From a virus (Duplodnaviria; Caudoviricetes), in IMG/VR virus record IMGVR_UViG_3300012931_000897, positions 1-33,969 of that record: 33,969 bases of DNA; one strand, written 5' to 3'. Each line of letters begins with the position of its first letter. The stretch's first letter is position 1. Under the pieces are notes generated by a model. The model made no database searches, was not told the DNA's origin, and saw only the letters and a list, made by a program, of their open reading frames with translations. The position numbers and the translations under genes are program-made. Positions 11,491 through 28,653 of the stretch are shown piece after piece.

Positions 11491-11961
11491 TCAGAACGGC
11501 AGGTCGGGCCCGGCTTCGATCCAGGCGGTGACCGTCGCGGCGGTGAAGGTGCCGGAGCTCTTGGGCACGCATCCGGCGCGGAGGTAGCGGCGGTGGATCT
11601 TGGGCAGGGGCAAGACGGCGATGATGCCCTTCTTGGTCCCCAGGGCACCGGTGGTGTAGTAGGTCCAGCCGTAGACGGTGGATCCGTCGTCCCATCCCTT
11701 GATGATGTTCACCCACGCGGATCCGGAGTAGGAATCCTGGATGAGCGGGGTGAAATCGTCGATGGAGGCGAAATCGGCCGCCGTGTGGAAGACCACGCAA
11801 AGATCCGCGTGCACGCCCGTGAGGTGCGTGTAGAGGCTGGAACTGCAGTAGGTCCGGAACATGGAGGAGACCGCGGCACAGTCCAGGGAATCGGCGCTGT
11901 AGACGTCGGTCCCTTTGACCGCCAGGCTGATCGCCCCGAAAATTTCAAGCGAGCTGCGCAT
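11491..11961 (-). CDS. Bbp16-like capsid cement/decoration protein
   Basis: Immediately after the major capsid gene. C-terminal LP..HRRYLR.....GTFTAATVTAWI is typical of this family. Confidence 0.7.
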   Translation of the reverse strand: MRSSLEIFGAISLAVKGTDVYSADSLDCAAVSSMFRTYCSSSLYTHLTGVHADLCVVFHTAADFASIDDFTPLIQDSYSGSAWVNIIKGWDDGSTVYGWTYYTTGALGTKKGIIAVLPLPKIHRRYLRAGCVPKSSGTFTAATVTAWIEAGPDLPF

Positions 11962-11971
11962 GTCACCCTCC

Positions 11972-12949
11972 TCAGCTGATAGCCGTCTCGGTGTCGAGAA
12001 TCGGCTCGTACATGCGGAACGGTACGCCCGCGCAGTGCGTGATGGGCCCGTACCCCTGGATCTCCCTCAGGTGGTAGGAGATGTTGGCCTTGTTGTAGGC
12101 CAGATCGTCCAGCTGCCCCATGACGGTCCGGTTGGCGAACGCCACGGCGTTCCGGCCCACGGAGGGGAGCTCCCTCTTCATCTTGATGAACGTGCTGGCG
12201 CTGAAGGTGTTGCTGGCTCCCGCGGTCTCGATGTTGGCGTACCGCAGGAAGGCCCTGCTGTTGCGGAGCACGATGCCGGCCCAGATCTCGAAGTGCCTGA
12301 CCCAGGCCCAGTAGTTGCCGGACCCGGAGGGCACGGGGAGGCTGTGCATTCCACGGTCCTCGTTGTGGAAACCGGCGGCGCCGCTGTCGGGCGGGAAGGT
12401 CATGTAAAAACCTGAGGGCCCGAACTCGAAGAGGAGGACGCTGGTAACGTCGGATCCCGTGCCGGAGCCGCCCCAGACGGTGTAGGGCTTGGCCGTGGAC
12501 AAAGTCTTTCGCCTGGCGTAGAGCCCCTTGAACGCGTCGGGGTAGTCACCCTGGTCGACGTAGACCAGCTGGTAGAGCCAGTCCTGCACGAGCCCGTTGA
12601 AGTTGAGGATATCCTCGGAATCACGGACCTTGCGGGCATCCACGCCCTTCAGGACCCGGTCATCGATGTTGGAGTCCCCTTCGTAGAGCTTGACCGGCTC
12701 GGTGATCTCGTCGGTCCCCGAGCTGATGGGGGTCGTGGCCCCGTACGCCTTGCTGAAGGCGCCCTTACCCAGGTACTTGGCCTGGAGCTGCTTGTTGTAG
12801 ATCCCCTGGTTGGCGGGGAGGAAGGGGCATTCATCCAGGAAGTCGTTCTGCTGACTGACTTCCCCCATGACCTCGGCTTCGCCATCGAATCCCAGGCGCT
12901 TCAGGGCCTCCGTCCAGGAGAGAGCGGAGTTCTGTGTGATGACGGACAT
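11972..12949 (-). CDS. Major capsid protein (BPP-1 Bbp17-like)
   Basis: 325 aa with AGGAG RBS. N..LD..PF..AN, F.GL..R, GSGTGSDVTSV, RYANIE and C-terminal GVPFR..EPILDTETAI. Located after the scaffold. Confidence 0.85.
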   Translation of the reverse strand: MSVITQNSALSWTEALKRLGFDGEAEVMGEVSQQNDFLDECPFLPANQGIYNKQLQAKYLGKGAFSKAYGATTPISSGTDEITEPVKLYEGDSNIDDRVLKGVDARKVRDSEDILNFNGLVQDWLYQLVYVDQGDYPDAFKGLYARRKTLSTAKPYTVWGGSGTGSDVTSVLLFEFGPSGFYMTFPPDSGAAGFHNEDRGMHSLPVPSGSGNYWAWVRHFEIWAGIVLRNSRAFLRYANIETAGASNTFSASTFIKMKRELPSVGRNAVAFANRTVMGQLDDLAYNKANISYHLREIQGYGPITHCAGVPFRMYEPILDTETAIS

Positions 12950-13241
12950 AATGCGCTCCTATCGTGACGACACGAGTAGTTGCGCGGCTATGTCTGGTTT
13001 TGGTTCTTTGCCGTCCTGTCCCTGTTTCAATCCACGCACCGTTAAGGTGCGACGGAAATCACCAGTCCATTTCCGGCCGACCGGCGCCGTCCTGTCCCCA
13101 GGTTCGCCCGTCCAAGTCTGGTACCCCCGCGATGGACCGACTCATTTAGCTGGTCTATTTTCGGCGCGCTCCAGATCCAGCTGCCGCTGAATCCGCAACG
13201 CGGATTTCATGGGGTGTATCGCTACACCCCCGTAAACTAGC
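12950..13241 (-). ncRNA. Structured ~290-nt 5' leader/ncRNA upstream of the major capsid gene
   Basis: Non-coding gap in an otherwise tightly packed operon. Hairpins at 13211-13230, ~13190-13206, 13053-13075 and ~12962-12975, plus the CRISPR repeat. Confidence 0.55.
13024..13053 (-). CRISPR. Solitary type I-C-like CRISPR repeat (not an array)
   Basis: Minus strand GTCGCACCTTAACGGTGCGTGGATTGAAAC: GT, CGCACC/GGTGCG stem, 5-nt loop, then the 11-nt TGGATTGAAAC handle. This matches I-C repeat architecture with the stem 1 bp shorter than the usual 32-nt repeat. Single copy, no cas genes. Confidence 0.8.
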
Positions 13242-13247
13242 ATGGGT

Positions 13248-13276
13248 ATAGTACCTCAGCCCGCTCTAGTTGTCAA
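13248..13276 (-). promoter_or_regulatory. Sigma70-type promoter driving the leader and capsid gene
   Basis: TTGACA (13276-13271), 17 bp, TACTAT (13253-13248). The -10 is bracketed by the inverted repeat AACTAG (13235-13240) / CTAGTT (13266-13271). Confidence 0.7.
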
Positions 13277-13485
13277 GTTTTCGTGCCTGCAACAGGATAT
13301 TTTTCCTCGAACTGCGGGGAGTAATGCTGTCCCTTTTTCCCCGCGGGCTTCTTGCCCGCCGCCGGTGTGACACCTGCGGCCCCTGCCCCTTCTGCCTCGG
13401 CGGGAGGTTGTCCCGCGGGCTGTGCGGTCGCATCTGCCGCGGGCTTCGGGGGCAGTTCCTTTTTCACGTCGTCTAAAAAGCTCAT
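13273..13485 (-). CDS. Small protein resembling the scaffold C-terminus
   Basis: ATGA overlap with the scaffold stop. Ala/Pro/Gly-rich, ending HYSPQFEEKYP, compared with HSREFDEKYP in the scaffold. Confidence 0.7.
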   Translation of the reverse strand: MSFLDDVKKELPPKPAADATAQPAGQPPAEAEGAGAAGVTPAAGKKPAGKKGQHYSPQFEEKYPVAGTKT

Positions 13486-14375
13486 CTTCGTCCCTTTCCT
13501 TTCGCGGGGTACTTCTCGTCGAACTCGCGGCTGTGGGCCATCCCCTCTGCCTTCGGCTTCCCAGCGCCCTGCGGGCTGCCCGGGATGAACGGCTCCTCGA
13601 GGAGATTCCTCTCCATCCCTGCGATGCCCATGGCGAACTTGGGGTTGAAGAACAGCCCCGTTTCCACCATCGCATTCACCGTTTCCTCGTCGCCGAACCT
13701 CTTCACCATGGCCCTCTTGTAAAGGTTCAACGTCTCGGCCTTCTTGGTCTCACTCCCGCCCAGGGCGTCCAGGAGCTTCGCCTCGAAACCGTCCTCGCTC
13801 TCCTTCTGCTTCTTCTTCCGCTGATCCTCGGCCACCTTGTTGAGATTCATGTAGGTCTCAAGGAGCTTCTGGGCCTGGTGGTTGTTCAGGCTCATTCCCG
13901 CGGCCTGCTGGCGTACGAATGCGACCGCGTTGTCCAGGTCCTTCACGTCCTTGTAGGCGTCCACTTTGAACTGGTATCCGTCCGGCTTCTCGGGGATCCC
14001 CAGGCGCGTGCGAAAAGCCTTCACCTCCGCGGGATCCGGCTTCTCCCCGGACGGGAGGATGAGCGCGCGGGCCATCCGCTTGGACATCTCGAATGATCTA
14101 GAAACTAGATCGTTCAGCCTGGGATGTCCTGAGAGATACTTCCGGAGCTCGGGGTCCTTTCTCAGCTCCGGGGAGATCTGGGAGTAGTAGTCGGGGTCCT
14201 TTGGTTCCGCCGCGGCGCCCTTGGGAGCCGATCCCCCGGCGGACGCCGGCTGTACGCCGGAGGCGGGAGCCCCGCCGGCGGGCGCTCCTTCGTCCCCCGC
14301 CCCTCCCACGGTGCCTCCGCCCCCTCCCCCGGCACCGTCGTCCGGTGCCCATTTGACCCAGTTTCGAAACCGCAT
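13482..14375 (-). CDS. Capsid scaffolding/assembly protein
   Basis: Low-complexity G/A/P N-terminus, LGIPEKPDGY motif and coiled coil. Located between portal and capsid. Confidence 0.75.
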   Translation of the reverse strand: MRFRNWVKWAPDDGAGGGGGGTVGGAGDEGAPAGGAPASGVQPASAGGSAPKGAAAEPKDPDYYSQISPELRKDPELRKYLSGHPRLNDLVSRSFEMSKRMARALILPSGEKPDPAEVKAFRTRLGIPEKPDGYQFKVDAYKDVKDLDNAVAFVRQQAAGMSLNNHQAQKLLETYMNLNKVAEDQRKKKQKESEDGFEAKLLDALGGSETKKAETLNLYKRAMVKRFGDEETVNAMVETGLFFNPKFAMGIAGMERNLLEEPFIPGSPQGAGKPKAEGMAHSREFDEKYPAKGKGRR

Positions 14376-14385
14376 ATCCCCTCCC

Positions 14386-14667
14386 CTATGTTTCCGGACC
14401 TTCGTCCGGCATGAGCTCGAGGTCCGCCATGGTGGCCGTGTCCGCCAGGGCGTTGGCCAAGGCGAACAGGTTTACCGGCGTCACGATTCCCAGCTTTCCC
14501 AGGATCCTGTTGTAAAGCGCGCGGAGCTCCGGCTTCCCGATCTCCGGATTCTGTGACCATTCTCCGCATTCATTGGCCAGCCACGCGAGCACTTCCCGGC
14601 CGTCCTGGGTGAGGAACACCCGCTGGAAGAGAAGCCGTTCCCCCCGGGTGTCTACTTTGATGCTCAT
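14386..14667 (-). CDS. Bbp19-like protein
   Basis: FQRVFLTQDGREVLAWLANEC motif, directly after the portal. Confidence 0.7.
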   Translation of the reverse strand: MSIKVDTRGERLLFQRVFLTQDGREVLAWLANECGEWSQNPEIGKPELRALYNRILGKLGIVTPVNLFALANALADTATMADLELMPDEGPET

Positions 14668-14669
14668 TT

Positions 14670-16385
14670 CTACACCGCCTCCGCCATGGATTCCGCGGGG
14701 CTCCCGGCCTCCGGGGCCTTGGAAGTGGCACCGTAGACCTTCGACTGGAGCTCCGCTGCCTTCATCTGCATCTGGGCCTTGAGCATGGCCTCCTGCTGTT
14801 TCTGCCGCGCGGCCCGGATCTTCTGGACCTCATACACGTCCCGCAGCACGTTCCGGTCGATGTTGTAGTACTTCCCGATGGACCTGACGTAGGCCTCCAG
14901 GTTCACGGGATCCAGCGCCGTCTTGTCGATCTGCGCCAGAGTGAAGATCTCGTTGAGCGCCTGACGGGTGTTGTCAAGAAGTAGGTAGCGCTTCTGCAAC
15001 TGGGCCAGGGGGCTCACCAGGTCGATCTTGATCCGCTGGCCACCGAGAACCCGGGGAGCCGGTGGCGCACGCCCAGCGTCTATCTCAAGCTGGAATAAGT
15101 CCTCCGTGACAGGCTCTAGAAACTCAGCTCCGAGCCGCCCGAAGAATGCCGTGAGCATTGCCGCCTGCTCCCCGCGGAGCCCTTCCACTTCCGTGGCGGT
15201 CTTGGTGCGCTGGATGTTCTGGGTGAGCACGAGGAAAAGCTCCGTGTGGTAGGACTCGTTGACGCCCTTCTGGAGCAATGACATGTCTTCAAGTATGCCC
15301 TTGGTATCCCCGATCAACATCCCGGCGCCGTAATCCTCACCGGCGCGCATCCATGTCACACCTGATGGGGTGAGATTGAGCCGGCCCTGCAGCTGCTCGG
15401 TTGCCTTGAGCGGCGGTCTGGCGCGCAGCTGGATCATCCGGTGGTAATCCTTCCTCATCCCGGAGAGCATCATCACATTGCTGATCTCGAGCATTCCCGG
15501 GCAGTCGATCCCCCAAACGGACCCATCGGGATTCCGGCTCCAGCGCCAAACAAAGAAGGGCTTCACCTCGTAGCCGCCCTCCCGAATTGCTTTCCGGTGA
15601 TCGCAGTCCGCCACGTAGACCGAATAGAACGGCATCCCTTTGGTGGACCGCGCGTCGATATCGAGGTCGAACTTGTCCAGAGGGAAGATGAACTGGGTGA
15701 ACATTTTTCGCGTGGTGTCGTTGTTCCGATAGGCATCCTGGATTATGACAGGCAGGGCCTCGTAGCCGAACATTGCTACGGCATCGAACGGCGTGAGCCA
15801 CAGGTCCCTGAAGAGGGTGTCCACCTCCCCGTTCTCGTCCTCCATGATGCAGCACCTTTTCAGGTGGAGGACCTGATACTGGGGAATCCCGCGGACCACG
15901 TTGTTGGTCCGGAACATGATTGCCGTTCCGAAATCAGCGCCAATGCGGATGAATGAACGGCCCTCATCGTAGAAGGACGATTTAGCCCACTGGTTGTACA
16001 ACCCGATCTCGGAACGCTGAAGGTAAGAAGAGACATCGGTGCGGTCCATCAAGGATTCATCTTCCGTGGCCAGCCTGTTCCAGGCACTGGATCGAGAGAA
16101 GGAATATCCCTGAATCCCATCCGCAAGACGGCCGCTTGCTTTCATGGCCGTGTTGTCGTAGACGACCTTCATGTCCGGCAGGGTCGTCTGGATCTCCGAC
16201 TCGAAGTTCCAATCGGCCAGAAGCGGATTGCAGTGCTGCGCAATCTCCTTCCACGTGGGGATGATCTGTTCCCGCTCCTCGATGAGCTGTCCGCGGATCT
16301 GGTAGAGGACGTCGAGGGATTCGACCGAGATTCTCGGCGTTGCCCGAATAATTTCTGCGGTTTGGGCCGCGGTTCGTTTTGCCAT
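14670..16385 (-). CDS. Portal / head-to-tail connector (T7 gp8 family)
   Basis: 571 aa. W.EIA...P, YDNTA..A...LA.G, FGTA, ED.NGEVDTLFR, GGY...PF...RW, KTATEV and SPLAQ motifs. Confidence 0.9.
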   Translation of the reverse strand: MAKRTAAQTAEIIRATPRISVESLDVLYQIRGQLIEEREQIIPTWKEIAQHCNPLLADWNFESEIQTTLPDMKVVYDNTAMKASGRLADGIQGYSFSRSSAWNRLATEDESLMDRTDVSSYLQRSEIGLYNQWAKSSFYDEGRSFIRIGADFGTAIMFRTNNVVRGIPQYQVLHLKRCCIMEDENGEVDTLFRDLWLTPFDAVAMFGYEALPVIIQDAYRNNDTTRKMFTQFIFPLDKFDLDIDARSTKGMPFYSVYVADCDHRKAIREGGYEVKPFFVWRWSRNPDGSVWGIDCPGMLEISNVMMLSGMRKDYHRMIQLRARPPLKATEQLQGRLNLTPSGVTWMRAGEDYGAGMLIGDTKGILEDMSLLQKGVNESYHTELFLVLTQNIQRTKTATEVEGLRGEQAAMLTAFFGRLGAEFLEPVTEDLFQLEIDAGRAPPAPRVLGGQRIKIDLVSPLAQLQKRYLLLDNTRQALNEIFTLAQIDKTALDPVNLEAYVRSIGKYYNIDRNVLRDVYEVQKIRAARQKQQEAMLKAQMQMKAAELQSKVYGATSKAPEAGSPAESMAEAV

Positions 16386-16394
16386 GGTATCCTC

Positions 16395-17129
16395 CTAAAG
16401 GAACTCCATTGGATCCCACTCACCGGTCCGCTGCCCGCTCCCGGATATCGTTTGTTCTGGAATATTACCATCTCGGCGGTCCCTCGTAAACCACCACGCC
16501 AACAGGAGATATGCGGTCACCAGGTCGTCATGGATTTCTTCATCGTCGGCTTCGTGCTTGGTCCTCCCGGTCTTTGTCGGAATACCCCGAAAGTGCATGA
16601 GCTGGGTCTGCATCTCCGGAGCCCAGCGTACCCCCTGCGCGACGCGGATCCGGTTTCGTTGCGCCAGGAGATTCCCGGCCGCCACCAGGTCGTCCTTCGG
16701 GACATGTATCTCCTGCAGGATGCGGGCCCCGGCAAGCTTCCCGCTCTGGGAGGAGGAGAAAACCTTCCCGAACTCGCTGTAGACCTCCCTCGACTGCCCA
16801 CCGCCGGTGATGATGATCGGCGTGGGGAACAGGTCCTTGCTCCTCATGAGGTCCACCACGGGCTCCCCCACCCCGGTGGCGTCGACAATCAGGTCCGCGT
16901 TCTGGGCCAGGTCCTTGTGCTGCATCAGCTTCCACACCGAAGACACCATCTCGATGTAGGACTTCCCGAAAAGCTGGTCGATGAACACGATGTCGTAGAA
17001 GTGGAGGAGCCGGTCCGGCTGATCGATCCGCCGGTCTCCATCCACGATTTCCGCGACGTCCTTGCCCACCTCGATCACGAACCGGTCTTTCCGTTTTCCT
17101 ACATCCACGGCCACGCAATATTCTTTCAC
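16395..17129 (-). CDS. terL: Terminase large subunit, nuclease (RNase H-fold) domain as a separate gene
   Basis: VAVDVGKRKD, LIVDATGVGEPV and HDDLVTAY motifs. GTG start overlaps the ATPase stop (GTGA) and has its own GGAGGT RBS. Confidence 0.8.
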   Translation of the reverse strand: MKEYCVAVDVGKRKDRFVIEVGKDVAEIVDGDRRIDQPDRLLHFYDIVFIDQLFGKSYIEMVSSVWKLMQHKDLAQNADLIVDATGVGEPVVDLMRSKDLFPTPIIITGGGQSREVYSEFGKVFSSSQSGKLAGARILQEIHVPKDDLVAAGNLLAQRNRIRVAQGVRWAPEMQTQLMHFRGIPTKTGRTKHEADDEEIHDDLVTAYLLLAWWFTRDRRDGNIPEQTISGSGQRTGEWDPMEFL

Positions 17130-18046
17130 ACCGGCACCTCCAGGGCTGGCGTGTTGGTCTTCTGTACCAGCCCGAAATCCATGGCCTTCACGTCGTTGTC
17201 AAACATCTTCTGGACGTCGTCATAGGAGAAGACCTGGTCATCAGGTTCTACGAACTCCACGCAGTATTCCTGTCGGTACATCGTGGGGCCCATCTCCTCC
17301 AGGTTTTCCTGCTGCTCCTCGAGGTTTGCATGTCGCGGCGAGTAGAATCCGCGGATCCCCGCGGCGGCCCGAAGAGCCTGGAACTTGGCCTCCGGCATGG
17401 CCGGCACCAGCTTGATCGCCTCCTCGTCAACGTCCCAAGGAGCGCGGATCTCGTACCTCTCCCAGCGGGCACTCAGGTAGGCCTTGTAGAAGAAACCCTC
17501 CCGCCCGTTGGGCGTCGAGATGACGATCAGCTCGCACTTCGGGTTGTCCGTAAGCATCGGTCTGATACCCGACTTGTATACCACGTCCTCGATACGGGAT
17601 GCCTCGTCCAAGAGGATCAGGTCCGGATTGGAATAGCCTCGGGCGCTGCGCTCCGTGGCCGCCACGATGATGATACGGGAGCTGTTCTCCAGCTCGATCA
17701 TCTCCTCGTTGGACTTCACAAGCGCGGGATAGAACGGATCATGGCCGATGAAATCCTTCACCTTCTCCATGTCCTCCCCGGCCTGCTTCTCCGTGGACGC
17801 CACAATGATCGATAGGCTTCCGGGGTAGAACTTGGCGTGGTGGGCGGGCTTTGTGCAGATAATCGTGCTCTTCCCGCTCTGTCGTGCGCCATCGATGAGA
17901 ATCCTCTTTGCGAAACTGGAAAGGACGTCCTTCTGCCATGGATATGAGTCAAACCCGAGGGACTTCACGTACCGCCAGGTGGAAAGAGAGTGGATGATGT
18001 AGTCGGCCTCCTGCCGCTTAATCTTCTGCAGCACGTTCGATTTCAT
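17126..18046 (-). CDS. terL: Terminase large subunit, ATPase domain
   Basis: YPWQ Q-motif, Walker A GARQSGKST, Walker B LILLDEASR, motif III ISTPNG, and C-terminal YRQEYCVEF. Confidence 0.9.
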   Translation of the reverse strand: MKSNVLQKIKRQEADYIIHSLSTWRYVKSLGFDSYPWQKDVLSSFAKRILIDGARQSGKSTIICTKPAHHAKFYPGSLSIIVASTEKQAGEDMEKVKDFIGHDPFYPALVKSNEEMIELENSSRIIIVAATERSARGYSNPDLILLDEASRIEDVVYKSGIRPMLTDNPKCELIVISTPNGREGFFYKAYLSARWERYEIRAPWDVDEEAIKLVPAMPEAKFQALRAAAGIRGFYSPRHANLEEQQENLEEMGPTMYRQEYCVEFVEPDDQVFSYDDVQKMFDNDVKAMDFGLVQKTNTPALEVPV

Positions 18047-18686
18047 GAATGATCTTCTCCCGGATCTCCGGGTAGTCCTCCGTCGCCTTCACGACGGCAT
18101 CCCTCATTCGAATCAGGGATTGGCTCATGGTGACGTTCATCACAACGTCCTTGATCTTCCCCTGGATGCGCGCAATCAGTTCGAGCTGACCCGTCAGGGT
18201 GTTGGCGGTCTCAAGGAGTAGTTTCCGCGGATCCGCAATTCGGTAGGAAATGGCTATGCAATCCTTCTCCGTCTTCAAGATCAGGTTCTGCAGCGTTTCC
18301 TTGTCCAGAATGGGCGCTCCCTTTGGGCTCAGGCTGGCCACGTAGGTGACCATGATGTCCGCGGCCCGGGGGCCCAGATCGTACTTCGTGGGGTCCTTGC
18401 AGTCCCGGAGGTATGAGTCCGCGGCGTCGTACATCTTCCGGACCCGTGAGACCACCTGATCGATCTCGTCGAGCAGCTTGGTGCCCAGATACCGAACCTG
18501 GGCAAGCGCCGCGGCGGCCGCGCGCCCCTCTAGATTCTGGTGAAGGTAACGGTTCACTGACTGCCGGTTCACCCCGTACCGGCGGGAGATCTCCGTCTGG
18601 GATAGGTTCCCCTTGATGAGCGCCTGGATGATCTGGGCCCTCTGAGGGTGCTGTTCGATGGCCAGAAATGGCCTGCGGCCGCCCAT
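18018..18686 (-). CDS. Probable terminase small subunit (N-terminal HTH)
   Basis: LSQTEISRRYGVNRQSVNRY HTH, immediately upstream of terL. Confidence 0.65.
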   Translation of the reverse strand: MGGRRPFLAIEQHPQRAQIIQALIKGNLSQTEISRRYGVNRQSVNRYLHQNLEGRAAAAALAQVRYLGTKLLDEIDQVVSRVRKMYDAADSYLRDCKDPTKYDLGPRAADIMVTYVASLSPKGAPILDKETLQNLILKTEKDCIAISYRIADPRKLLLETANTLTGQLELIARIQGKIKDVVMNVTMSQSLIRMRDAVVKATEDYPEIREKIIHEIERAAED

Positions 18687-18965
18687 CTACCACGCCTTCC
18701 ATATCCTCACGGCATCGATGTCCCGTGTGTTCGGTCTGAACGTGGTGAACGGAAGCTTCACCCCAGGCGCCGTGTGGTAGACGGCGTAAGGGTCCTTCCC
18801 TGGAGCAACGACCAGGTCCAGGCGGAGTGGATAGTCGAACTGTGGCAGTCGCACCGTGATCGGACGCCCGCTGATCGCCCGGTTCTGGCGGGATGCCCGC
18901 GCCGCGGCCTCCCATGAGTCGTATTCCCGTATCCGCTTCTCCCCAGGTTTCACCGGCGCGTTCAT
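18687..18965 (-). CDS. Hypothetical protein
   Basis: Coupled ORF (ATGA overlap) with RBS. Confidence 0.55.
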   Translation of the reverse strand: MNAPVKPGEKRIREYDSWEAAARASRQNRAISGRPITVRLPQFDYPLRLDLVVAPGKDPYAVYHTAPGVKLPFTTFRPNTRDIDAVRIWKAW

Positions 18966-19318
18966 GGGCCCTCCGTGATGATGAAGGTGATTTTAGACGG
19001 CCCGTGCGCATTCCCCACGCGAACCGCTTCCGGCAGGGGGACCTCCGCGCCCTCCGTGAAAACGGAGGCTTTTCGTAAGGCCTCCATGCACGGCTGTACC
19101 AGCCGTTCCTCCCTGATCCTGGCGGGGATCTCCATCTCCAGGCGGATGTTGATCGTGCCGTAGAGCCTCCTCTTCAGGGCCTTCCGGATGGCCAGGGTCA
19201 TGCTCGAGATGCATAGGAGGAGCTGACCCTCGGTGTACTTCTGGCCATTTCCCCCGGCGCCGTATTTTCGGTCCGCGGGGATTGCCTTTCCTTCCCACTC
19301 GATGATCGTGGTGCTCAT
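18962..19318 (-). CDS. RusA-like protein with degenerate active site
   Basis: Start re-called to 19318 (ATGA overlap). Size, position and the pattern GTINIRLEMEIP...RLVQPCMEALRKASVFTEGAEV...KITFIIT follow RusA, but DxDN..K...D...DD is absent. Confidence 0.45.
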   Translation of the reverse strand: MSTTIIEWEGKAIPADRKYGAGGNGQKYTEGQLLLCISSMTLAIRKALKRRLYGTINIRLEMEIPARIREERLVQPCMEALRKASVFTEGAEVPLPEAVRVGNAHGPSKITFIITEGP

Positions 19319-19803
19319 GAGGCTTTCTCCTGCGCCACCCGATCGAGCTTCTCGATGCACTCCAGCGCCCAGCTCACCACCAGGCGGGATTGCCGGGTGT
19401 GCGGACGGCCGTTCTCCACCATGTCGTTCAACAGTCGGACCGCGGTCAGGAGCACGGTCCGTTGCACCTCGTTGTGCCTGGCGGCCGCGATCCAGGCCGA
19501 CTCATCCCCGGAGAGGGCCTGGTCGTTGAAGCGAGTCAAGGCTTCCTGAACACGGACCTGGTATTCCTCCAGCCTGTTCCGGCCGAAGAAATCCCGCTCC
19601 GCCAGCATGCTCAAGGATATGATGCTGGAAATCGTCAACCCGCGGATCTTCTTCTCCGCCGATTCCACGAACGCATTGATCTCCCCGGTAGGCTTACGGA
19701 TTTTCTCCCGGAACTTGAACCCACCGGTGGCCCTGACTCCTAACAACACCTGATCCAGCTGCTCCATGGAGCGCCGGATCTGCTTGTGCTCGTCTTCTTT
19801 CAC
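19315..19803 (-). CDS. Hypothetical helical protein
   Basis: Coupled ORF, GTG start with GGAGGG RBS. Confidence 0.6.
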   Translation of the reverse strand: MKEDEHKQIRRSMEQLDQVLLGVRATGGFKFREKIRKPTGEINAFVESAEKKIRGLTISSIISLSMLAERDFFGRNRLEEYQVRVQEALTRFNDQALSGDESAWIAAARHNEVQRTVLLTAVRLLNDMVENGRPHTRQSRLVVSWALECIEKLDRVAQEKAS

Positions 19804-20327
19804 CTTCCCCTCCCTATCTCGTTAACCCGATCGATCACCAGGTTCAGCGTCTTCGCAAGATCGTTAATCCGGTTGAGGGCTGCATTCAAATCGGGATTTT
19901 TGCTGAAAACGTTCTGAACCCCGTGGTCTTCAAATTGGTCAAGCGGCTTTCTTTCAACGCGTGGCTCGCGTTCCACCGGCACCCTGATGCCCGCGGAGAA
20001 AAGCCCCAGGCTCAGGGCCGCAACCGCCTGCTCGCTCAACTCGATGGCGGAGTTGTCCGCGACAAGATGCACCACCTCATGCAGCAGCGTCTCCTCGAAC
20101 TGGTCGGGAGGCAGATCTTGTTCCAGGGTAATCAACCCGGCATTCATGATGCTCCGTCCCATCGCGCCGTCACACGGGGAGTTCTTCTCGAAGAGCTCGA
20201 TCCGTTGTTCCAACCCGAAGATCCTCACCTTGCCATACGCTTCGCCCACCGTCTCCTCCTCCCAGTTTTCACGCTTCTGCTCAGATAGCCGCTTTATCAC
20301 GCGTATCCGCGGATCCGGGCGGCGCAC
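19800..20327 (-). CDS. Phage zincin-like metallopeptidase-domain protein
   Basis: EETLLHEVVHLV...LSEQAV (HExxH plus downstream E). Start uncertain. Confidence 0.6.
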   Translation of the reverse strand: MRRPDPRIRVIKRLSEQKRENWEEETVGEAYGKVRIFGLEQRIELFEKNSPCDGAMGRSIMNAGLITLEQDLPPDQFEETLLHEVVHLVADNSAIELSEQAVAALSLGLFSAGIRVPVEREPRVERKPLDQFEDHGVQNVFSKNPDLNAALNRINDLAKTLNLVIDRVNEIGRGR

Positions 20328-21261
20328 GTTCTACAGGTTCCGACGCGGCCGGTTCCCAGCCGTCGCCCGTCTCTTCCACCTTTTTCCGCGACCAGATCAG
20401 CCGGCAAGCATTGCAATGGGCTTCCCCTCGCGAGCTGACCCGTTTCTTCCCGTGGCAATCTGGGCATTCAACCGTCTCGACTTCCTCCCGCGGCGGCCGC
20501 GTGGATTTTTTTGCCTTCTGGAGCCATTCGAAATAATCGGCCAGGAACAGATTCATTGCCTTTCCGGAATGCGCTTTCTGACATGTTCTGTACGCGGATT
20601 CGATCTCCACGGGATCCTCGCTTACCTGAAGATTCTCCAGTTGGGACAAGATTCTTTCGGAGAGTTCCGGCAACGGCTTACCGGTCACCTCGAGGTGAAT
20701 TGCGGAGAGTCTATTCATGATTCCGGTTTCGGTTTCGGAAGGCGAAGCCGAAGGGGGGGATTCTTCCGGCGCCGCGGCGCCGTCTGGGATCCCAGGAATT
20801 CTTATTCCCCCCTCTTTCTTTTCTTTTCTTTTCTCATTGCTTGAGCGATGCCTCGGCGTCGGTTTAGCATCGCTTAAGCGTTGCTTGAGCGATGCCGCAG
20901 CCTTGCCGCCCTTCCGTCCAGCATCGGCGTACCGTTGCTTTGACATCGCCATGATGTCCATATCACGGAGGACCCTCGAGCTCCATGCCGTCTCCTTGTT
21001 CATCTCGAGAAGCTCGATTTCCTCCCCAGCCAGCTCCCGGATGAACTGTTCAGCCTCACCCGGAGTGCAACCCCACTTCTTCGCAAATGCCCGAAAAGTC
21101 CACTTCGTGAGGACCATGATGTAGCCGTCCTGAAGCCGCAGGAACTCCACGATCGTCCACCACCGGCCGTATCCCTCCATCCCGTGGAGATGGATCAGGG
21201 CCTCGATCTTCGGATCGTCGGTTGCGTTTGCGTCGTGCTTGAACCACGGTACGTCTTTCAT
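20281..21261 (-). CDS. Replication initiator (DUF4373/Lin1244-like N-terminus, C-terminal Zn finger)
   Basis: Start re-called to ATG 21261. WFKHDANA.DDPKI..L....GMEGYG.WW..VE.L, AGRKGG, and CPDC...CNAC. Confidence 0.75.
   Translation of the reverse strand: MKDVPWFKHDANATDDPKIEALIHLHGMEGYGRWWTIVEFLRLQDGYIMVLTKWTFRAFAKKWGCTPGEAEQFIRELAGEEIELLEMNKETAWSSRVLRDMDIMAMSKQRYADAGRKGGKAAASLKQRLSDAKPTPRHRSSNEKRKEKKEGGIRIPGIPDGAAAPEESPPSASPSETETGIMNRLSAIHLEVTGKPLPELSERILSQLENLQVSEDPVEIESAYRTCQKAHSGKAMNLFLADYFEWLQKAKKSTRPPREEVETVECPDCHGKKRVSSRGEAHCNACRLIWSRKKVEETGDGWEPAASEPVERAPPGSADTRDKAAI
20814..20896. repeat. Candidate replication origin: iterons plus pyrimidine/AT-rich tract within the initiator gene
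   Basis: TTGCTTGAGCGATGCC at 20837-20852 and 20881-20896, an inverted near-copy at 20867-20879, and an adjacent (CTTTT)n tract. Confidence 0.6.
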
Positions 21262-21437
21262 GCGCCCCTCCCCGCCCCCCAGATCATGGCTCCCGTCGGC
21301 GGCTGCCACGTACGCGTTAGGATGTAACCCGGACCGAACAAGATCAGCTTCTCCTCCCGGCATTCCTCGCACCAGAACATGTCATTGCCCATCCTCGAAA
21401 CGGGCCGGCCACAGTCCGGACAGGTCACACGTTTCAC
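21258..21437 (-). CDS. Small zinc-ribbon protein (59 aa; not in ORF track)
   Basis: GTG start with GAGGT RBS. MKRVTCPDCGRPVSRMGNDMFWCEECREE...; the stop overlaps the initiator ATG. Confidence 0.6.
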   Translation of the reverse strand: MKRVTCPDCGRPVSRMGNDMFWCEECREEKLILFGPGYILTRTWQPPTGAMIWGAGRGA

Positions 21438-21441
21438 GCGG

Positions 21442-21771
21442 TTACCTCGTTGGGGGCACGACGAGGCCGGAGACCACGCCGCGGATCGACTGCAGGATCT
21501 CCGGATCGGTCAGATCGGTGACGACCACGCCAACCGATGACACCCGGAGGAACTGCGGCGCACCGAAGAAGGAATCCGCGCGGTCCACGCCGTAGTCCAC
21601 CCCGCCTTCGGGACGGGGAACCAGCTTCACCCTCGCCGTCTTGTTCGTCGGAAAGATGATCTTCCCGTCCTTTTCTTCCACGCATTCGCAGAAGAAAAGC
21701 GAACCGGATGGGATCTGGTAGAGCCCTACCACCCCAGTATTGAGGCGCCCGTTTGCCTTCATGATGGCCAT
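21442..21771 (-). CDS. Hypothetical protein
   Basis: Fills the operon gap, with plausible composition. Confidence 0.55.
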   Translation of the reverse strand: MAIMKANGRLNTGVVGLYQIPSGSLFFCECVEEKDGKIIFPTNKTARVKLVPRPEGGVDYGVDRADSFFGAPQFLRVSSVGVVVTDLTDPEILQSIRGVVSGLVVPPTR

Positions 21772-21774
21772 GGG

Positions 21775-21984
21775 CTACTCATTCCTGGCGATGGATGAAT
21801 TCGCCCACATGACGCACTCTTCCAGCTTCGTGAAGGAAAGGGACTTCTCACGGCTTTCGGGACACTGGCGGTTCAGTAGATGAGCAAGCTCTTTCGCTTT
21901 CTCGCGGATCTCCTCATATCGTTCTAACTGCGTCCCCTTTGGCGCGTGGTAAATGAAGTTGTCTTCGATCTCGTCGTGCTTCAC
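21775..21984 (-). CDS. Acb2/Tad1-like helical-hairpin protein (candidate immune-signal sponge)
   Basis: 69 aa, NFIYHAP...CPESREKSLSFTKLEECVMWANSSIARNE. RE.S.A.TKLEE..MW is the hairpin signature I associate with Tad1/Acb2-related proteins. Confidence 0.6.
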   Translation of the reverse strand: MKHDEIEDNFIYHAPKGTQLERYEEIREKAKELAHLLNRQCPESREKSLSFTKLEECVMWANSSIARNE

Positions 21985-22074
21985 GGTTTCCCCCTCCCAA
22001 AAACCGCGGAAGCCGGGCGGGTGTACCAGGTCTTTCAGGAGTCCCGGGATCCCGCACCGGCAACCGCGCGAATC

Positions 22075-22794
22075 TCATGCGATGGTGGCGACGTCCTTCA
22101 CCTGCTCCCGGCACCACTCCACGATCGAGGCTATGGCGTTCAGCTTCCAGAGACCGCCCCCGGCGGTGAACAAGGCGAAGGATGGCGGTTGCCCATCCCC
22201 GCCCCCGCGGGCCCTGAAGATGAACGTGGACTCGGGCTGTTCGATCTCCCGGAAGGTCCTCCACGGCCTCAGCTTCACGGGGTTGGGGATCGGGCTGTTT
22301 TCTCCAAGATGGACTCCCACCTTGGTCTGGACCGTTTGGGAAACGCCATCGTCCGAGTGGTTGACGACCTTCTCGTCCTTGATGTTCCCGACAACCTGGA
22401 GGATCTTGGCCAGATCCCCGGTTTCGGAGAACTCCACCTGCAGGTTGATGATGAATGTCTCGGGGTCCATCCACTTCCCGAACTGGAACGCTCCCTCCTC
22501 CGTGGTTGTACGCAAGAAAACGGTCCTCTTCAGGGACGGCTCCTTCGCGGGCCCCAGGATGGCCACGGATTTGTGGCTTTCAACGTGCAGTAGGACCTGG
22601 TCCCGCTTCACCAGGTCGAGGTTGTGCTCGAAGAAGTCGTTGATGGCGGTGAGCGTGGAAACGGCCAAGGTGTCCGGCCGCGGATCGTGCTCGATCAGCT
22701 TCAGGCTCTGGTTGCTGTACTTTTTCCCATCCACATCCAGCAGCGTGGGGGCGGCCAGTTTGACGACCTCCTGGATGAAACTCGCGTCCATCAT
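22075..22794 (-). CDS. Conserved phage protein (YfdQ/DUF2303-like)
   Basis: FIINLQ..F, DDGVSQTV, PNPVKLRPWRTF.EIEQPES.FIFR and GG.WK motifs of a common prophage family. The DUF assignment is tentative. Confidence 0.6.
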   Translation of the reverse strand: MMDASFIQEVVKLAAPTLLDVDGKKYSNQSLKLIEHDPRPDTLAVSTLTAINDFFEHNLDLVKRDQVLLHVESHKSVAILGPAKEPSLKRTVFLRTTTEEGAFQFGKWMDPETFIINLQVEFSETGDLAKILQVVGNIKDEKVVNHSDDGVSQTVQTKVGVHLGENSPIPNPVKLRPWRTFREIEQPESTFIFRARGGGDGQPPSFALFTAGGGLWKLNAIASIVEWCREQVKDVATIA

Positions 22795-23138
22795 GCTTCT
22801 TTTCCTTTCTTGATGTCTAGAACGACCCCGGGCAGTAACCCCTGCTTGGGGTGGTCCGTGTACGCCTTCGCGCCGGCATTCGTTCCCACGATATGGATGT
22901 TGGTCTTGTAGGATTTGATCGGGGCCAGACGCTTCGACGGCGAGACCTCAATCTTGCCGTAGGATCGGTCTTCACTCGGCTTGATCTTGAACGTCAGGGT
23001 AATCGACCTGGTCGCCTCCGCGGCTGTGTTTGGATCGGCGATGTTCTGAAGAACCTCCGCAAACTCCTTCGCGAAAAGCTCCCCGGCGACGCCCGCTCCC
23101 AATGTTTCGAGGGTCACCTCTTTCAACTCATTTTCCAC
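22791..23138 (-). CDS. Conserved phage protein (often annotated 'replication terminator'), partner of the downstream gene
   Basis: G...E.F..E...VLQNIADPNT.....RSITLT..IKP...R motif. Confidence 0.65.
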   Translation of the reverse strand: MENELKEVTLETLGAGVAGELFAKEFAEVLQNIADPNTAAEATRSITLTFKIKPSEDRSYGKIEVSPSKRLAPIKSYKTNIHIVGTNAGAKAYTDHPKQGLLPGVVLDIKKGKEA

Positions 23139-23337
23139 GTTCCTCTCCTTTCTTCTGCTTGAAATCCACCGCGTTCCGGCAGGTGGCCCAGTGCGGCGTC
23201 CCGTCCGGATCCAGGGGCATCGCTTTCCCAGCCTGCGTGCGGATCCAGAAGATCGATGCGCCGCACCCCTTGCAGCTCTTCGGGGCCGTCCCGGGCGGGA
23301 TCTTGTACTTCCCGTCTACCGGCTTCCCGTACGTCAT
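23128..23337 (-). CDS. Small zinc-binding phage protein
   Basis: Start re-called to 23337. CKGCGASIFWIRT..GK.MPLD....HWATC. Confidence 0.7.
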   Translation of the reverse strand: MTYGKPVDGKYKIPPGTAPKSCKGCGASIFWIRTQAGKAMPLDPDGTPHWATCRNAVDFKQKKGEERGK

Positions 23338-23555
23338 ACGGTCACCGGGAGCGCTTCCCGGTCCCCAACCGACTCGAGGAACTGCACGTACTGGTCGTCC
23401 GTTCCATGGAACGCGATGGCCCCCGGAACCGGCGTCCCCGCGCCGAAGATCAGGGCGGCCAGCTTGAACCGGTGAGGCATCACCGCCATGTCCCGCGGGT
23501 ATAAAATGACCTCCCGCGTCTTCACCCCCTCGATCTGTCTCATCCCCACGACCAT
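23334..23555 (-). CDS. Hypothetical protein
   Basis: RBS before ATG 23555, ATGA coupling downstream. Confidence 0.5.
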   Translation of the reverse strand: MVVGMRQIEGVKTREVILYPRDMAVMPHRFKLAALIFGAGTPVPGAIAFHGTDDQYVQFLESVGDREALPVTV

Positions 23556-23675
23556 CCTCGTCTCCTTTCGCCCCACCATGGGGCCGCGGACTGTCACGCC
23601 CCCCGGAGACCGCGCGATCTCCAGGATTAAGAGGAGCGGCCGCCGGGCTACCAGCCCAGGCCCTCCCCGGGATCC

Positions 23676-24161
23676 CTACGAACCGGCCAGCCCCGGCAGC
23701 CACCTCTCCCCCGCCGGCACCAAATGCTTCCGGGCCTGTCCCTCGAGAATCCGGGAACCGACCGCCAGGGCTTGCCGGAGCCTGGGAGGAAAGCCCTCGG
23801 CCGCCGCGGGGGAAGGGCCTCCTACGGCGGCGGGGCGCTGATCGTCGTCGGATACAGGTCTGAGCCCCAGAAGGGCCTGAAACTGCTCACGGGTAATGAG
23901 CGCCCGCTCCACGGCGGACCGCAACTCCCGGATCTGCGCCCCGGAGGGGAGCTCCGCAGGATGCGGCGGCCGCCCCGCGGATTGCGGGGGATTCACGTGA
24001 TGCGGGGATTCAAAGGCCTTCAGGACCATGTAGGCCTGGAACTCGTTCAGAACCACCGGCACCCCGGGAGACGTTTCCACCTCCGGGAATAGACGGCGGA
24101 CCGCCCGGAGGACCGTGTCCTCTGATTTCCGCACGATCTGGGCGACCTCCCGAATCTTCAT
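23676..24161 (-). CDS. HTH DNA-binding protein (antirepressor/Rha-like regulator candidate)
   Basis: N-terminal MKIREVAQIVRKSEDTVLRAVRRLFP HTH. Confidence 0.55.
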   Translation of the reverse strand: MKIREVAQIVRKSEDTVLRAVRRLFPEVETSPGVPVVLNEFQAYMVLKAFESPHHVNPPQSAGRPPHPAELPSGAQIRELRSAVERALITREQFQALLGLRPVSDDDQRPAAVGGPSPAAAEGFPPRLRQALAVGSRILEGQARKHLVPAGERWLPGLAGS

Positions 24162-24427
24162 GCGGTCCTACCGGCGGCTACCGTTGCCCGGCGGAGCTTC
24201 AGGAGGTCCTGCATGCGCTGGTATTCCGCGCTGATCCGCTTCCAGTAGTCGTACTCATCCATGGAGAGCTCGATCTCGATGATGTCCCCGGCGCCCCCGT
24301 AGGGCAGTTCCGCGGGGAACTCGTAGACCACCGGCCAGCATTCCAGGAAGGCCTCACAGGTGGCCGTGCGGACCCGGACCGTCTCCGGCCGTGGGAGGAG
24401 CTTGATTGACATGGCGGAGTCGATCAT
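24158..24427 (-). CDS. Hypothetical protein
   Basis: ATGA overlaps at both ends and GGAGG RBS. Start re-called. Confidence 0.55.
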   Translation of the reverse strand: MIDSAMSIKLLPRPETVRVRTATCEAFLECWPVVYEFPAELPYGGAGDIIEIELSMDEYDYWKRISAEYQRMQDLLKLRRATVAAGRTA

Positions 24428-24612
24428 TGCAGCCCTCCGATCGACATCCGCGGAGGCTCCGCGTCCCGGGCGTGCCGCGCTTCCCGGCGCGCGCGGCGCT
24501 TCGCCCTGAAACCGTCGCCCAGTATCCAGGCGATCGCGATGAGGGTGCCCACCGCGGCAACCGCGGAAAGAGCGCAAAGGGTACCGAACATGGCATCCAC
24601 GAGGGTCTTCAT
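24424..24612 (-). CDS. Small single-pass membrane protein
   Basis: MKTLVDAMFGTLCALSAVAAVGTLIAIAWILG followed by a basic tail. AGGAG RBS, ATGA overlap. Confidence 0.55.
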   Translation of the reverse strand: MKTLVDAMFGTLCALSAVAAVGTLIAIAWILGDGFRAKRRARREARHARDAEPPRMSIGGLQ

Positions 24613-25067
24613 GCTCCTCTCCTTTCCTGGTGGGGCGTCCCAGTTCTGCGCCCCGCCAAGATCAGTCTCAGGGCCTCGCGCCGTACGGCCGCCTGTCCCT
24701 CCAGCCAGCCCGGCGGCCCTTTGATTGCCGTACCCAGGTTCCAGTACCGGTCCGTTCCGTGCATCTCGTCGGCCACCCCGTTGTTCGGTTGCCGCTTGCG
24801 GTCCTTCTCGATGGATGACCACTTCTTCCGCGGGACCCCCCATGCATCCAGGAGCTCGTAGAGGCTGTAGAGGTCCTGGGTGAACCGGAGCGGGTATTGA
24901 ATCGATCCCGCCTCAAGGCCGATCACCCGCGCCTCCAGATCCGGAATGCAGTCCAGGAGCGCCACCTTGTCCTCGGGTGCGATGATCTTCCGTGGCGCCC
25001 GCGCCGGGACCGCCTTGGTGGTCATGAAGTCGTGTGGGCAGTCGGTCCCGGGGATTGGAGGCAACAT
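24609..25067 (-). CDS. Hypothetical protein
   Basis: In-operon ORF with RBS. Confidence 0.55.
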   Translation of the reverse strand: MLPPIPGTDCPHDFMTTKAVPARAPRKIIAPEDKVALLDCIPDLEARVIGLEAGSIQYPLRFTQDLYSLYELLDAWGVPRKKWSSIEKDRKRQPNNGVADEMHGTDRYWNLGTAIKGPPGWLEGQAAVRREALRLILAGRRTGTPHQERRGA

Positions 25068-25076
25068 GGCCCTGTC

Positions 25077-25263
25077 CTACTCCTCGCTGATGGTGAGATA
25101 GAGCTTCTTTCCGGGCTCAAACAGGGGGAACGCCGCAGGATTTGAAATCGTCATCTTCAAGCTTCCGCTCGGCGTGGCCTTCCAGAAGGCCCGGTTCTCC
25201 TCACAATAGTTCATCGTTGTAGTGCGTGATGGAACTGACAAAAAACTTCGCTTTTACCTGCAT
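25077..25263 (-). pseudogene. Frameshifted small conserved phage gene
   Basis: MQVKAKFFVSSITHYND in one frame (stop at 25203-25201), and EENRAFWKATPSGSLKMTISNPAAFPLFEPGKKLYLTISEE in the +1 frame. Both halves match one small phage family as I recall it. Confidence 0.6.
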
Positions 25264-25318
25264 GATTCCCTCCTCGCCGACGCCCTTTGTCGTCCGCGCG
25301 TAGATCTCCTGAATTGTG

Positions 25319-25357
25319 AAAAGAGGCCGGGACGGGAAAGGAGTAACCCGCCCCGGC
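25319..25357 (-). terminator. Rho-independent terminator in early operon
   Basis: GCCGGGGCGGG-loop-CCCGTCCCGGC followed by CTCTTTT on the minus strand. Confidence 0.55.
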
Positions 25358-25605
25358 AGAAACGGGAGAAAGTCGCAGGCGAACCTGCGGCATCGAAACG
25401 GAGGTTGGGCGCCTCCGAAGTCGATCATGGAAAAGAAGCCCCAGTCTTGCCCCGCGCTGAGGCGCCGCGGCGGAGAACATCCCGTGCGTGACTTGACCAT
25501 TGGCATGGATCGTTTCCTCACGCCCTACGATCCCGGTACACCCTACGGTTCGTTCCCCTTCAAACCGCCACTGTTTTGGGGTTATGCCACTGAATTGGAG
25601 GTGGA

Positions 25606-25725
25606 TCATCTGTGCAACCTCCGGATTATGTGAAACAGATCCAAGTAGAGGTGGTACAGATCGCGACAAAAGCACACGAATCCATAAGCGCTTCCGATAG
25701 CAATGAGGAGGTGAGCCAGCTTCAT
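25606..25725 (-). CDS. 39-aa hydrophobic peptide (not in ORF track)
   Basis: MKLAHLLIAIGSAYGFVCFCRDLYHLYLDLFHIIRRLHR, with ATGA overlaps at both ends. Confidence 0.4.
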   Translation of the reverse strand: MKLAHLLIAIGSAYGFVCFCRDLYHLYLDLFHIIRRLHR

Positions 25726-26042
25726 GGCACGATCTCCTTTATGGCGGCTTCGAGCGGTGCAAGATCATATTCATCTGTGCCAGCTCTTTTCAGATCAGCG
25801 ATAGTCAACCCGGCGCCTTTGATGATTTCCGTGGCATAGGTGGGTTCGTCGAATGCTCGGATCAGTTCTGCGCAGGCGTATGCAATCCCCTGGACAAAAC
25901 TGACGTTATTCTTACTCGTCGCCTCCCGCAGCTTTGTGCCCTGAGCAAGCAGCGGATCGATGGCGGAACAGAGGTAGACGTTGTACATTCGGTTGTCACC
26001 CTTGGGGTGCATCAGATATCTTTCGGGCTGTTCTGCGCTCAT
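25722..26042 (-). CDS. Hypothetical protein
   Basis: Start re-called to 26042 (ATGA overlap with the methylase stop). Confidence 0.6.
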   Translation of the reverse strand: MSAEQPERYLMHPKGDNRMYNVYLCSAIDPLLAQGTKLREATSKNNVSFVQGIAYACAELIRAFDEPTYATEIIKGAGLTIADLKRAGTDEYDLAPLEAAIKEIVP

Positions 26043-26929
26043 GCTCTCATCTCCGCGTTTTCGAATAATCCTTTTTCCCTGACTGGAACCTTGGGAGACA
26101 GCCACAGGACCTCCGTACGCGCCCCTTTGAAAGCACCAACACGGCATTCAATGCGGCGCCAATCGGGGTAGAGCTCGGTGTCGTAAAGATCACAGGGATA
26201 CCCGGAAATGATGGCCATGCCTTGAATTTCATGCAGAGCTGAAGCCAGTTCCCGGTGATCCTCTTCGGTCATTTCGTGGCGGTAGCTATGGCCATTATCG
26301 CTGCGCGTTGATTGAAGGTATGGAGGGTCCAAATAGAACAGCGTGTCATGATGATCGTATTGCTGGATCACCTTGAGCGCTGGCCTTGATTCAATGACCA
26401 CCCCCTGCAGGCGCCGGACGAACTCGGCGATGTGATTCGGGTAGTGAGCCCAGTCCTTCGCCGGCGTCGTGCCGCTTCGATTCGAGTCGGAGCGGAATCC
26501 CGTGTGCGCTTTCCATACCGATGCTCGACAGAAGAACCCGCAAGCCCCTGCGGATCCCCGATGGATCGAGTCCGAGCCGAATCCTGCGAAAGACTTGAGG
26601 ACCGTCCGGCGAGCCTGTTCAATGGGATTCCTGGTGGGTGTAAAGGCAGATCCGAAATCCTCCCGGGAGAACGGGGTCAGGCGGATGAGCCGTTCCAGCT
26701 TCGCGGCTTTCCTGGGATTCCGGAGGACCCGGAAAACGTTCACGACCTCGAGGTCCAGGTCGTTGTAGATCTCCGCGTATGCCCGTGGCTTCTGCAAGAG
26801 GACAGAAGCCCCACCCCCGAAGGGCTCAACGTAGACCCGATGCGCCGGAAAATAGCGGATGATCCACCTGGCCATGCGCCATTTCCCTCCGTGGTACCTG
26901 AGCGCAGGTCGGGTCACAGCGCCTGTCAT
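26039..26929 (-). CDS. dam: DNA adenine methyltransferase (Dam/D12 class), orphan
   Basis: RYHGGK, YVEPFGGGASV, EIYNDLD and FYLDPPY motifs. Start re-called to 26929. Specificity unknown. Confidence 0.9.
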   Translation of the reverse strand: MTGAVTRPALRYHGGKWRMARWIIRYFPAHRVYVEPFGGGASVLLQKPRAYAEIYNDLDLEVVNVFRVLRNPRKAAKLERLIRLTPFSREDFGSAFTPTRNPIEQARRTVLKSFAGFGSDSIHRGSAGACGFFCRASVWKAHTGFRSDSNRSGTTPAKDWAHYPNHIAEFVRRLQGVVIESRPALKVIQQYDHHDTLFYLDPPYLQSTRSDNGHSYRHEMTEEDHRELASALHEIQGMAIISGYPCDLYDTELYPDWRRIECRVGAFKGARTEVLWLSPKVPVREKGLFENAEMRA

Positions 26930-27521: not shown

Positions 27522-27531
27522 TGACGTTCTC

Positions 27532-27561: not shown

Positions 27562-27597
27562 GCGAGAAGGTGAGATTTCACGAAGGAGGGCGCTACC

Positions 27598-28009: not shown

Positions 28010-28043
28010 TCCTTCCTCCTCCTCAGCCCGCACGGGCCGTCTT

Positions 28044-28645: not shown

Positions 28646-28653
28646 CGAGTGAC

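Follow-up and report, generated by a model that had tools for sequence, protein, structure and literature searches.

A solitary type I-C-type CRISPR repeat in the conserved capsid-leader RNA of a temperate podophage: a candidate lineage-specific anti-CRISPR decoy

The stretch of DNA analysed here (the window) is a virus record of its own, of 33,969 bases, in IMG/VR and, based on PHROGs, Pfam and NCBIfam matches, represents a temperate podophage with an integrase, a repressor, a terminase, a portal-type gene and a capsid gene of the epsilon15-type gp7 family. The named relatives of the window capsid recovered by our capsid searches come from Spirochaetes and hence, as judged from this sequence relatedness, the host of the phage is probably a spirochaete. 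Two relatives of the window integrase were found, and a search for a close prophage in 69 genomes of the family of G001 (a member of the class Spirochaetia; see below) returned none, with weak matches in two genomes and the leader motif described below in one genome. Separately, the early/immunity region of the window holds two pairs of direct repeats, one of 48 nt (31306-31353 and 31790-31837, 94% identical) and one of 34 nt (27528-27561 and 28040-28073, 97% identical).

The features around the capsid gene are listed in Table 1. The sigma-70-type promoter reported in the preliminary description of this locus is indeed present; it scores 10/12 and is the sole minus-strand site within 11500-14500, a segment that contains two promoter-like sites in total vs. 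0.5 +/- 0.7 in shuffles. Its -35 box overlaps the stop codon of a 70-aa ORF; the tail of this ORF may have originated by duplication of a tail that binds the capsid, and its product is a candidate ligand of the leader. The C-terminal motifs of the 70-aa and scaffold-like proteins recur among many relatives, and two loci (L018 and L028) have the long protein alone. Downstream, the end of the -10 box lies 195 nt from a sense-oriented, type I-C-type CRISPR repeat, which in turn ends 74 nt before the capsid ATG (at 12949).

Table 1. Features of the capsid-leader region of the window, in positions of the whole stretch
Feature	Position	Strand	Basis or remark
Major capsid protein gene, epsilon15/BPP-1 gp7 type, 325 aa	11972..12949	-	Pfam GP7; NCBIfam MCP_gp7_epsi_15 above cut-off; PHROGs
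Hairpin over Shine-Dalgarno (12960-12956) and capsid AUG	12945..12994	-	Predicted fold
35 nt 3' of the handle: conserved module 3' strand and A/C-rich linker; prospective pseudo-spacer in the event of a Cas5c cut	12989..13023	-	
Core module copy 2, with the repeat in its variable tip	13010..13077	-	Second R1 match (13077-13010, 20.5 bits, E 7.6e-4)
Solitary type I-C-type repeat, 30 nt: 2-nt 5' end, 6-bp stem, 5-nt loop, 11-nt handle (13034-13024)	13024..13053	-	
Core module copy 1: closing stem, purine-rich internal loop, second stem, variable tip	13084..13168	-	R1 match (13208-13081, 56.7 bits, E 1.3e-13); covariation in relatives
P1 hairpin, GUU loop	13190..13206	-	Conserved with compensatory changes in relatives
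5' hairpin	13211..13230	-	Predicted fold
Sigma-70-type promoter, TTGACA-17-TACTAT	13248..13276	-	TTGACA 13276-13271, 17 nt, TACTAT 13253-13248
70-aa ORF directly 5' of the promoter	13273..13485	-	C-terminus resembles the C-terminal motif of the 297-aa scaffold-like protein
Scaffold-like protein, 297 aa, preceding the 70-aa ORF	13482-14375	-	

The leader had previously been noted as hairpin-rich, consistent with its predicted fold, which beats 100/100 shuffles (z -4.06), and had otherwise been treated as background; the conserved, duplicated RNA module that it contains was absent from that account. Our capsid searches provided 102 loci, 93 of which have sequence 5' of the start codon and collapse to 62 distinct upstream regions, including that of the window itself (L062). 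Many of these regions share a motif about 50 nt 5' of the ATG (median 52.5, n = 38 regions) that starts with a P1 hairpin (GUU loop) and a small hairpin, continues with a closing stem separated from a second stem by a purine-rich internal loop, and finishes in a variable arm. The arm ends mostly in a GAA-ACC-loop-GG-AGUA pattern, which we take to resemble the loop E (S-turn) motif. Among 29 single-module leaders (28 distinct rows) selected for possessing both loop strands, 93.5% of 336 cells were paired, two-sided changes occurred in 6 of the 12 leader pairs, and the covariation score was reached by none of 500 shuffles, with slid controls pairing at 22-52%; it is important to note that kinship among the leaders may inflate these values and that the choice of rows favours them. 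The one-sided changes in the leader stems are G-U/U-G, which favours an RNA on the sense strand. The support for P1 is a hairpin count, i.e., a stem of at least 5 bp on a GUU, GUAU or GUC loop in 28/35 leaders vs. 0.5 expected from shuffles, with two to five pair types at every one of five positions; in the covariance model R1, P1 is out of register (43% paired). In the whole-leader fold of the window, another long hairpin replaces P1 and the closing stem of module 1. Taken together, the window leader belongs to a structured RNA that is conserved among epsilon15-like phages with relatives in Spirochaetes, and we infer from its structure that it is a cis-acting control element for capsid translation.

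The R1 model was built from the same 29 single-module leaders, with the window left out, and matches 37 of 60 sources (29 of these being training rows), whereas 23 sources, from divergent clades, gave no match. A strict leader pattern returned 21 matches in IMG/VR, every one of them 5' of a capsid gene of the window's family (20 on contigs known by their capsid and one confirmed separately), and one match in GTDB, to a record already known via its capsid. None of the eight matches to a pattern for short-tip modules had a capsid match. Rfam 15 gave no match to the window leader at gathering score and, even with E values of up to 2 allowed, none to the L008 leader, which has a single module; no described version of the motif was found in the largely open-access literature searched.

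The slot of the 5' hairpin in the window is the site of a tRNA-Met(CAT) gene in 10 of the 58 loci scanned (L017, L020, L026, L027, L029, L039, L040, L045, L056 and L077), which belong to separate clades; nine of these genes lie directly 5' of the motif and that of L077 about 500 nt before the ATG. Of 59 full-length upstream regions, 43 contain a TTGAC[ATG] element before the capsid, a count that carries no chance control. These two observations suggest that the promoter-proximal slot often holds extra RNA cargo. Several of the tRNA loci also share an additional conserved hairpin block 5' of the tRNA. A Treponema-associated clade (L054, L058, L060, L094 and L102-L104), in which R1 gives no match, has a different leader in the 250 nt 5' of its capsid gene that is also apparently conserved and structured.

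The window leader carries the core module twice, with the repeat occupying the variable tip of the second copy. The same tandem layout is found in L010, which shares the C-U/A-G stem of module 2 and has a plain 18-nt hairpin at the tip, and, by eye, in L029. None of the 61 other distinct upstream regions of the capsid family has an I-C repeat on either strand. In a quick capsid tree, the tandem leaders do not group, and the window is sister to P0002, followed by L001/L067 (one module, no repeat). The simplest reading of this distribution is that the repeat was gained after the module duplication, with loss in other lineages being the alternative. A 13-nt duplication flanking the repeat was considered as an insertion scar and rejected, as it corresponds to the conserved 3' strand of each module. 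The comparison with relatives shows a conserved leader with covarying stems and a repeat that is not conserved, an outcome that the preliminary description had listed among those that would refute it; it follows that the coupling of capsid expression to Cascade, which the preliminary description had raised, is not a trait of the family, and that selection on the repeat is not demonstrable by comparison.

The description of the repeat itself proved accurate. The I-C pattern, with up to three mismatches, has one match in the window and none in 100 shuffles, the 11-nt handle is intact, no second full or partial repeat is found at spacer distance in the window, and no cas family is present among 43 ORFs searched with PHROGs or 44 ORFs searched with NCBIfam. 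The possibility of a CRISPR mini-array was rejected because the GCCGCGC found 35 nt further on belongs to the leader and is shared by relatives that lack the repeat. The repeat is intergenic, being overlapped by unsupported opposite-strand ORFs only, and is single, outside any array, with no cas genes nearby and a promoter at most 250 bp upstream, which are the positional criteria for solitary repeat units (SRUs). Natural I-C substrates consist of a 2-nt overhang, a 7-bp stem, a 5-nt loop and an 11-nt overhang, and Cas5c recognises the stem base and U22-G23-G24 while tolerating loop changes, according to PMC8524198. The window repeat has the 2-nt 5' and 11-nt 3' overhang sequences of these substrates, but not their 7-bp stem and 32-nt length. 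In all 19 Spirochaetia array stretches fetched, the main repeat is likewise 32 nt long, and the best identity of the window repeat to any of them is 27/32; SRUFinder asks for an identity of 90% or more to one of the array repeats in its comparison set (17,823 repeats, vs. our 19 stretches). Relative to the closest host-type repeats, the window repeat differs solely in the loop and in one lost top pair, and retains the 5' GU, the stem base and the entire handle. In DNA run X4, a 96-nt contig is identical to the window over 13008-13037 and divergent on both sides; it could stem from a spacer in an array or from a relative of the phage whose repeat is a variant, and pattern scans for such a spacer or phage found neither (four unrelated matches and one more unrelated match).

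Type I-C systems occur, patchily, in the plausible host class. I-C repeats were found in 51 of 401 genomes (~13%) of the class of G001, these genomes being incomplete, and G001 itself combines a related prophage (L100) with Cas5d and an array of roughly 90 repeats. The three other genomes with related prophages (G002-G004) have no I-C repeat, so that one of four such genomes has an I-C array. None of 741 spacers matched the window or the loci of its relatives over more than 20 nt.

RNA run X3, a metatranscriptome from another study, contains near-identical contigs over 13073-13305 and 12515-12979 and further pieces over 28768-32304, near the repressor and integrase genes. These contigs show presence only, as strand and start are invisible, the library may include DNA, and the run was found through the leader region. 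The leader contig extends upstream of the predicted start at 13241 by 64 nt, which read-through or DNA would explain and a clean start would not. No X3 contig covers 12980-13072, which holds the repeat, and none covers 13306-28767 except for two foreign pieces of ~34 nt. Reading these holes as a sign of cutting at the repeat, and the overall pattern as lysogen-like, was considered and dropped, since the contigs are filtered, of low depth and from one study.

Several known systems offer points of comparison. The closest is RacrIC1, which, as described in PMC10651486, sits 11 nt downstream of acrIC5 and functions inside a bicistronic mRNA; like the SRUs of that study, the window repeat is a single intergenic sense repeat, without array or cas genes, less than 250 bp from a promoter, and, like RacrIC1, it would be part of a protein-coding transcript. 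Unlike RacrIC1, it lies upstream of an essential structural gene, within a conserved leader, with a handle predicted to be paired and a 6-bp stem. It is a candidate SRU/Racr by position rather than an established member, and the word "capsid" is absent from the main text of the SRU paper. The viral crlRNAs/Cracrs (10.1101/2024.10.29.618823) are similar in combining a phage-borne repeat with a spacer-sized stretch, whereas in the window no PAM-adjacent target was found for this stretch, which is a conserved strand of the leader and older than the repeat. The structured phage RNAs of PMC10690425 also include motifs that covary and precede capsid genes; of the rows in its within-25-bp table, nine name capsid domains and none of these names PF20911, and on the basis of these table entries the leader may or may not coincide with one of those candidates. 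The preprint 10.64898/2026.07.01.735769 deals with other RNAs.

In having a structured leader for a head gene that neighbours one of scaffold type, the window also recalls the translational operators of the P22 type, scaffold autoregulation in P22 reportedly being a phage example of such an operator. The window motif is larger, with two conserved internal loops, and its regulatory role is putative. No described repeat in a capsid or portal leader was found in the literature searched, which was largely open-access and included the main text of the SRU paper. Accordingly, what appears to be new here is the location of a repeat inside a capsid leader and a candidate undescribed RNA motif, solitary repeats themselves being already known.

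Shortened (27-30 nt) I-C repeats are found in other phages as well, with at least 120 loci in IMG/VR (~170 estimated) that fall into at least 47 sequence groups and at least 36 lineages; among the matches listed, 80 of 80 loci have a single match. A sense ORF of at least 70 aa lies within 350 nt of the repeat in 30 of at least 47 groups, and none of these 30 groups has a capsid annotation among the matches listed. In four unrelated lineages the ORF behind the repeat is of the portal type, at 15 nt or less from its start in L169, L213 and L222 and at 108 nt in L212 (repeats near position 1200, or 1150 in L222). In L169 and L222, the repeat is wedged between the stop of the large terminase gene (2-7 nt before) and the portal start, and in L225 it lies downstream of a virion structural gene. 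It is important to note that viral contigs are selected for hallmark genes, and hence the recurrence at portal genes is a lead rather than an enrichment test. A few additional observations concern other loci. The solitary repeats of L169, L225, L206 and L161 are flanked by 15-21-nt direct duplications of phage sequence that resemble insertion scars. In L113/L114, near position 1500, a solitary I-C-type repeat lies a few bases 5' of the ribosome-binding site of an ORF whose product looks, on visual inspection, like a sigma factor. L004 (1501-1530) is an example from a Megasphaera chromosome, where a solitary I-C-type repeat of 30 nt follows a terminator-like hairpin. L148, L149 and their relatives, a single lineage of at least 10 groups that accounts for most loci among the matches listed, retain an I-C repeat of 27 nt, its stem being 5 bp long, in the neighbourhood of invertase/integrase and DNA-binding genes.

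Based on the above, we tentatively favor, at slightly less than an even chance, the hypothesis that the window repeat is a candidate lineage-specific RNA anti-CRISPR decoy riding on the capsid-leader transcript. Under this hypothesis, a spirochaete host is the likely source from which the repeat was captured, the tip being a tolerated insertion site given that it varies freely in the family. The promoter would give rise to a leader-capsid RNA that a phage protein probably reads at the invariant internal loops, and the Cas5c (Cas5d) of the host would cut at 13035/13034 when the tip breathes, leaving the 11-nt handle, ~35-38 nt of leader and a GC hairpin, i.e., a product with the dimensions of an I-C crRNA and no target. 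This untargeted, crRNA-like product would tie up Cas5c and Cas7, and capsid control and decoy would be separate roles that share an RNA rather than parts of a single designed switch. A role as a decoy, as the preliminary description had proposed by analogy with Racrs, appears the likeliest because the repeat is solitary, promoter-proximal and sense-oriented, keeps its 11-nt handle, and I-C systems occur in a plausible host class. However, several observations weigh against it: cutting would remove the conserved leader from the capsid mRNA, the stem is one pair shorter than in natural substrates, the best identity to a fetched array repeat is 27/32, I-C repeats are seen in only ~13% of the class sample, the spacers fetched show no match of note to these phages, and the repeat is lineage-specific with a handle that is predicted to be paired.

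The last point gives rise to the main alternative, namely that the captured repeat is a silenced passenger, an inert, stable hairpin whose handle is zipped into the leader stem and shields the mRNA from Cas5c. The fold of the leader predicts that U-G-G-A in the handle pairs with the 5' flank at 0.93-1.0 (0.94-0.97 for the UGG after the cut site) and the AC of the handle with the 5' strand of the module at 0.64, which makes access of Cas5c to the handle doubtful in this model. Both ends of the handle thus pair in register with the module 5' strand, and pairing of at least 0.9 is seen in only 2.3% of 300 shuffled flanks and in 4/47 other phage repeats. The plain hairpin at the same place in L010, the absence of the repeat from the relatives and the scar-like duplications around the repeats of L169, L225, L206 and L161 are also consistent with this alternative. 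On the other hand, 10 of 57 working array repeats are predicted to be equally paired, and therefore the pairing weakens the decoy hypothesis without refuting it and is no proof of protection; further, changes have affected two bases of the stem as well as bases of the loop, but none in the unpaired central part of the handle. We consider the passenger a real possibility, albeit one that we would on balance bet against.

An unlikely alternative, raised in the preliminary description as its second reading, is that capsid output itself responds to Cascade, i.e., that Cas5c would cut the leader and Cas7 would coat the following 35 nt, stripping the 5' arm of the AUG stem, or, in a variant, that the cut would remove the upstream control modules, and that capsid translation would thereby change in I-C-positive cells. 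The SD/AUG region of the window is predicted to lie in a strong hairpin (unpaired 0.17 vs. 0.49 in shuffles) that is also predicted in L010, L001 and L067, most spacers of the fetched arrays (588/741) are 34-35 nt long, and forcing the handle and the 35 nt to be unpaired frees the AUG in the computed fold. Yet the SD stays partly paired in that fold, a GCCGCGC-like element exists at similar spacing in 12 repeat-less relatives, occlusion of the SD is unsupported across the family (29/55 below control, p 0.077), the repeat occurs once, and tying an essential gene to a patchy host system would bring no clear benefit. It also seems improbable that a single RNA serves to absorb Cascade and, at the same time, to adjust capsid output to the CRISPR status of the host (a Cas5c site in a capsid riboregulator); if this were true, the solitary I-C repeats before portal genes in four unrelated lineages would represent a wider class of Cas-processed late messages.

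Still less probable is that the repeat and its 3' flank form a regulatory guide, i.e., a crlRNA/Cracr directing Cascade to a promoter. The handle, 35 nt and hairpin do have crRNA geometry, and I-C Cracrs exist according to 10.1101/2024.10.29.618823. However, the part that would have to act as seed (the first 14 nt 3' of the handle) coincides with the invariant 3' strand of the module, which is present in repeat-less relatives; no PAM-adjacent target for the 35-nt stretch is found in the window, where a self-match in module 1 has a CCT flank and a first-base mismatch; and four cas5d loci offer a seed run of 6 nt at most, vs. the 9 PAM-proximal matches that serve as threshold in that study. Finally, an assembly chimera or a chance likeness is barely credible, even if the repeat is known from one assembly lineage, given that it has no counterpart in 100 shuffles, the leader strands on either side of it are in register, no fetched array repeat is identical to it, and a single contig of DNA run X1 (possibly the source sample of the window, so that its agreement is not independent) covers 11500-14500, including the repeat, with zero differences.

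In conclusion, the window offers a natural candidate Cas5c site inside the leader of an essential structural mRNA, and the leader itself, as a covarying motif of ~130 nt with invariant internal loops and no Rfam match, is a candidate new cis-regulator of head-gene expression. The solitary I-C repeats at portal starts suggest that late transcripts are a recurrent landing place for such repeats. If the site in the window is cut, RNA anti-CRISPRs may arise by dropping a repeat into the tolerant tip of an existing RNA, which would also raise the question of whether host Cascade alters the output of virion genes.
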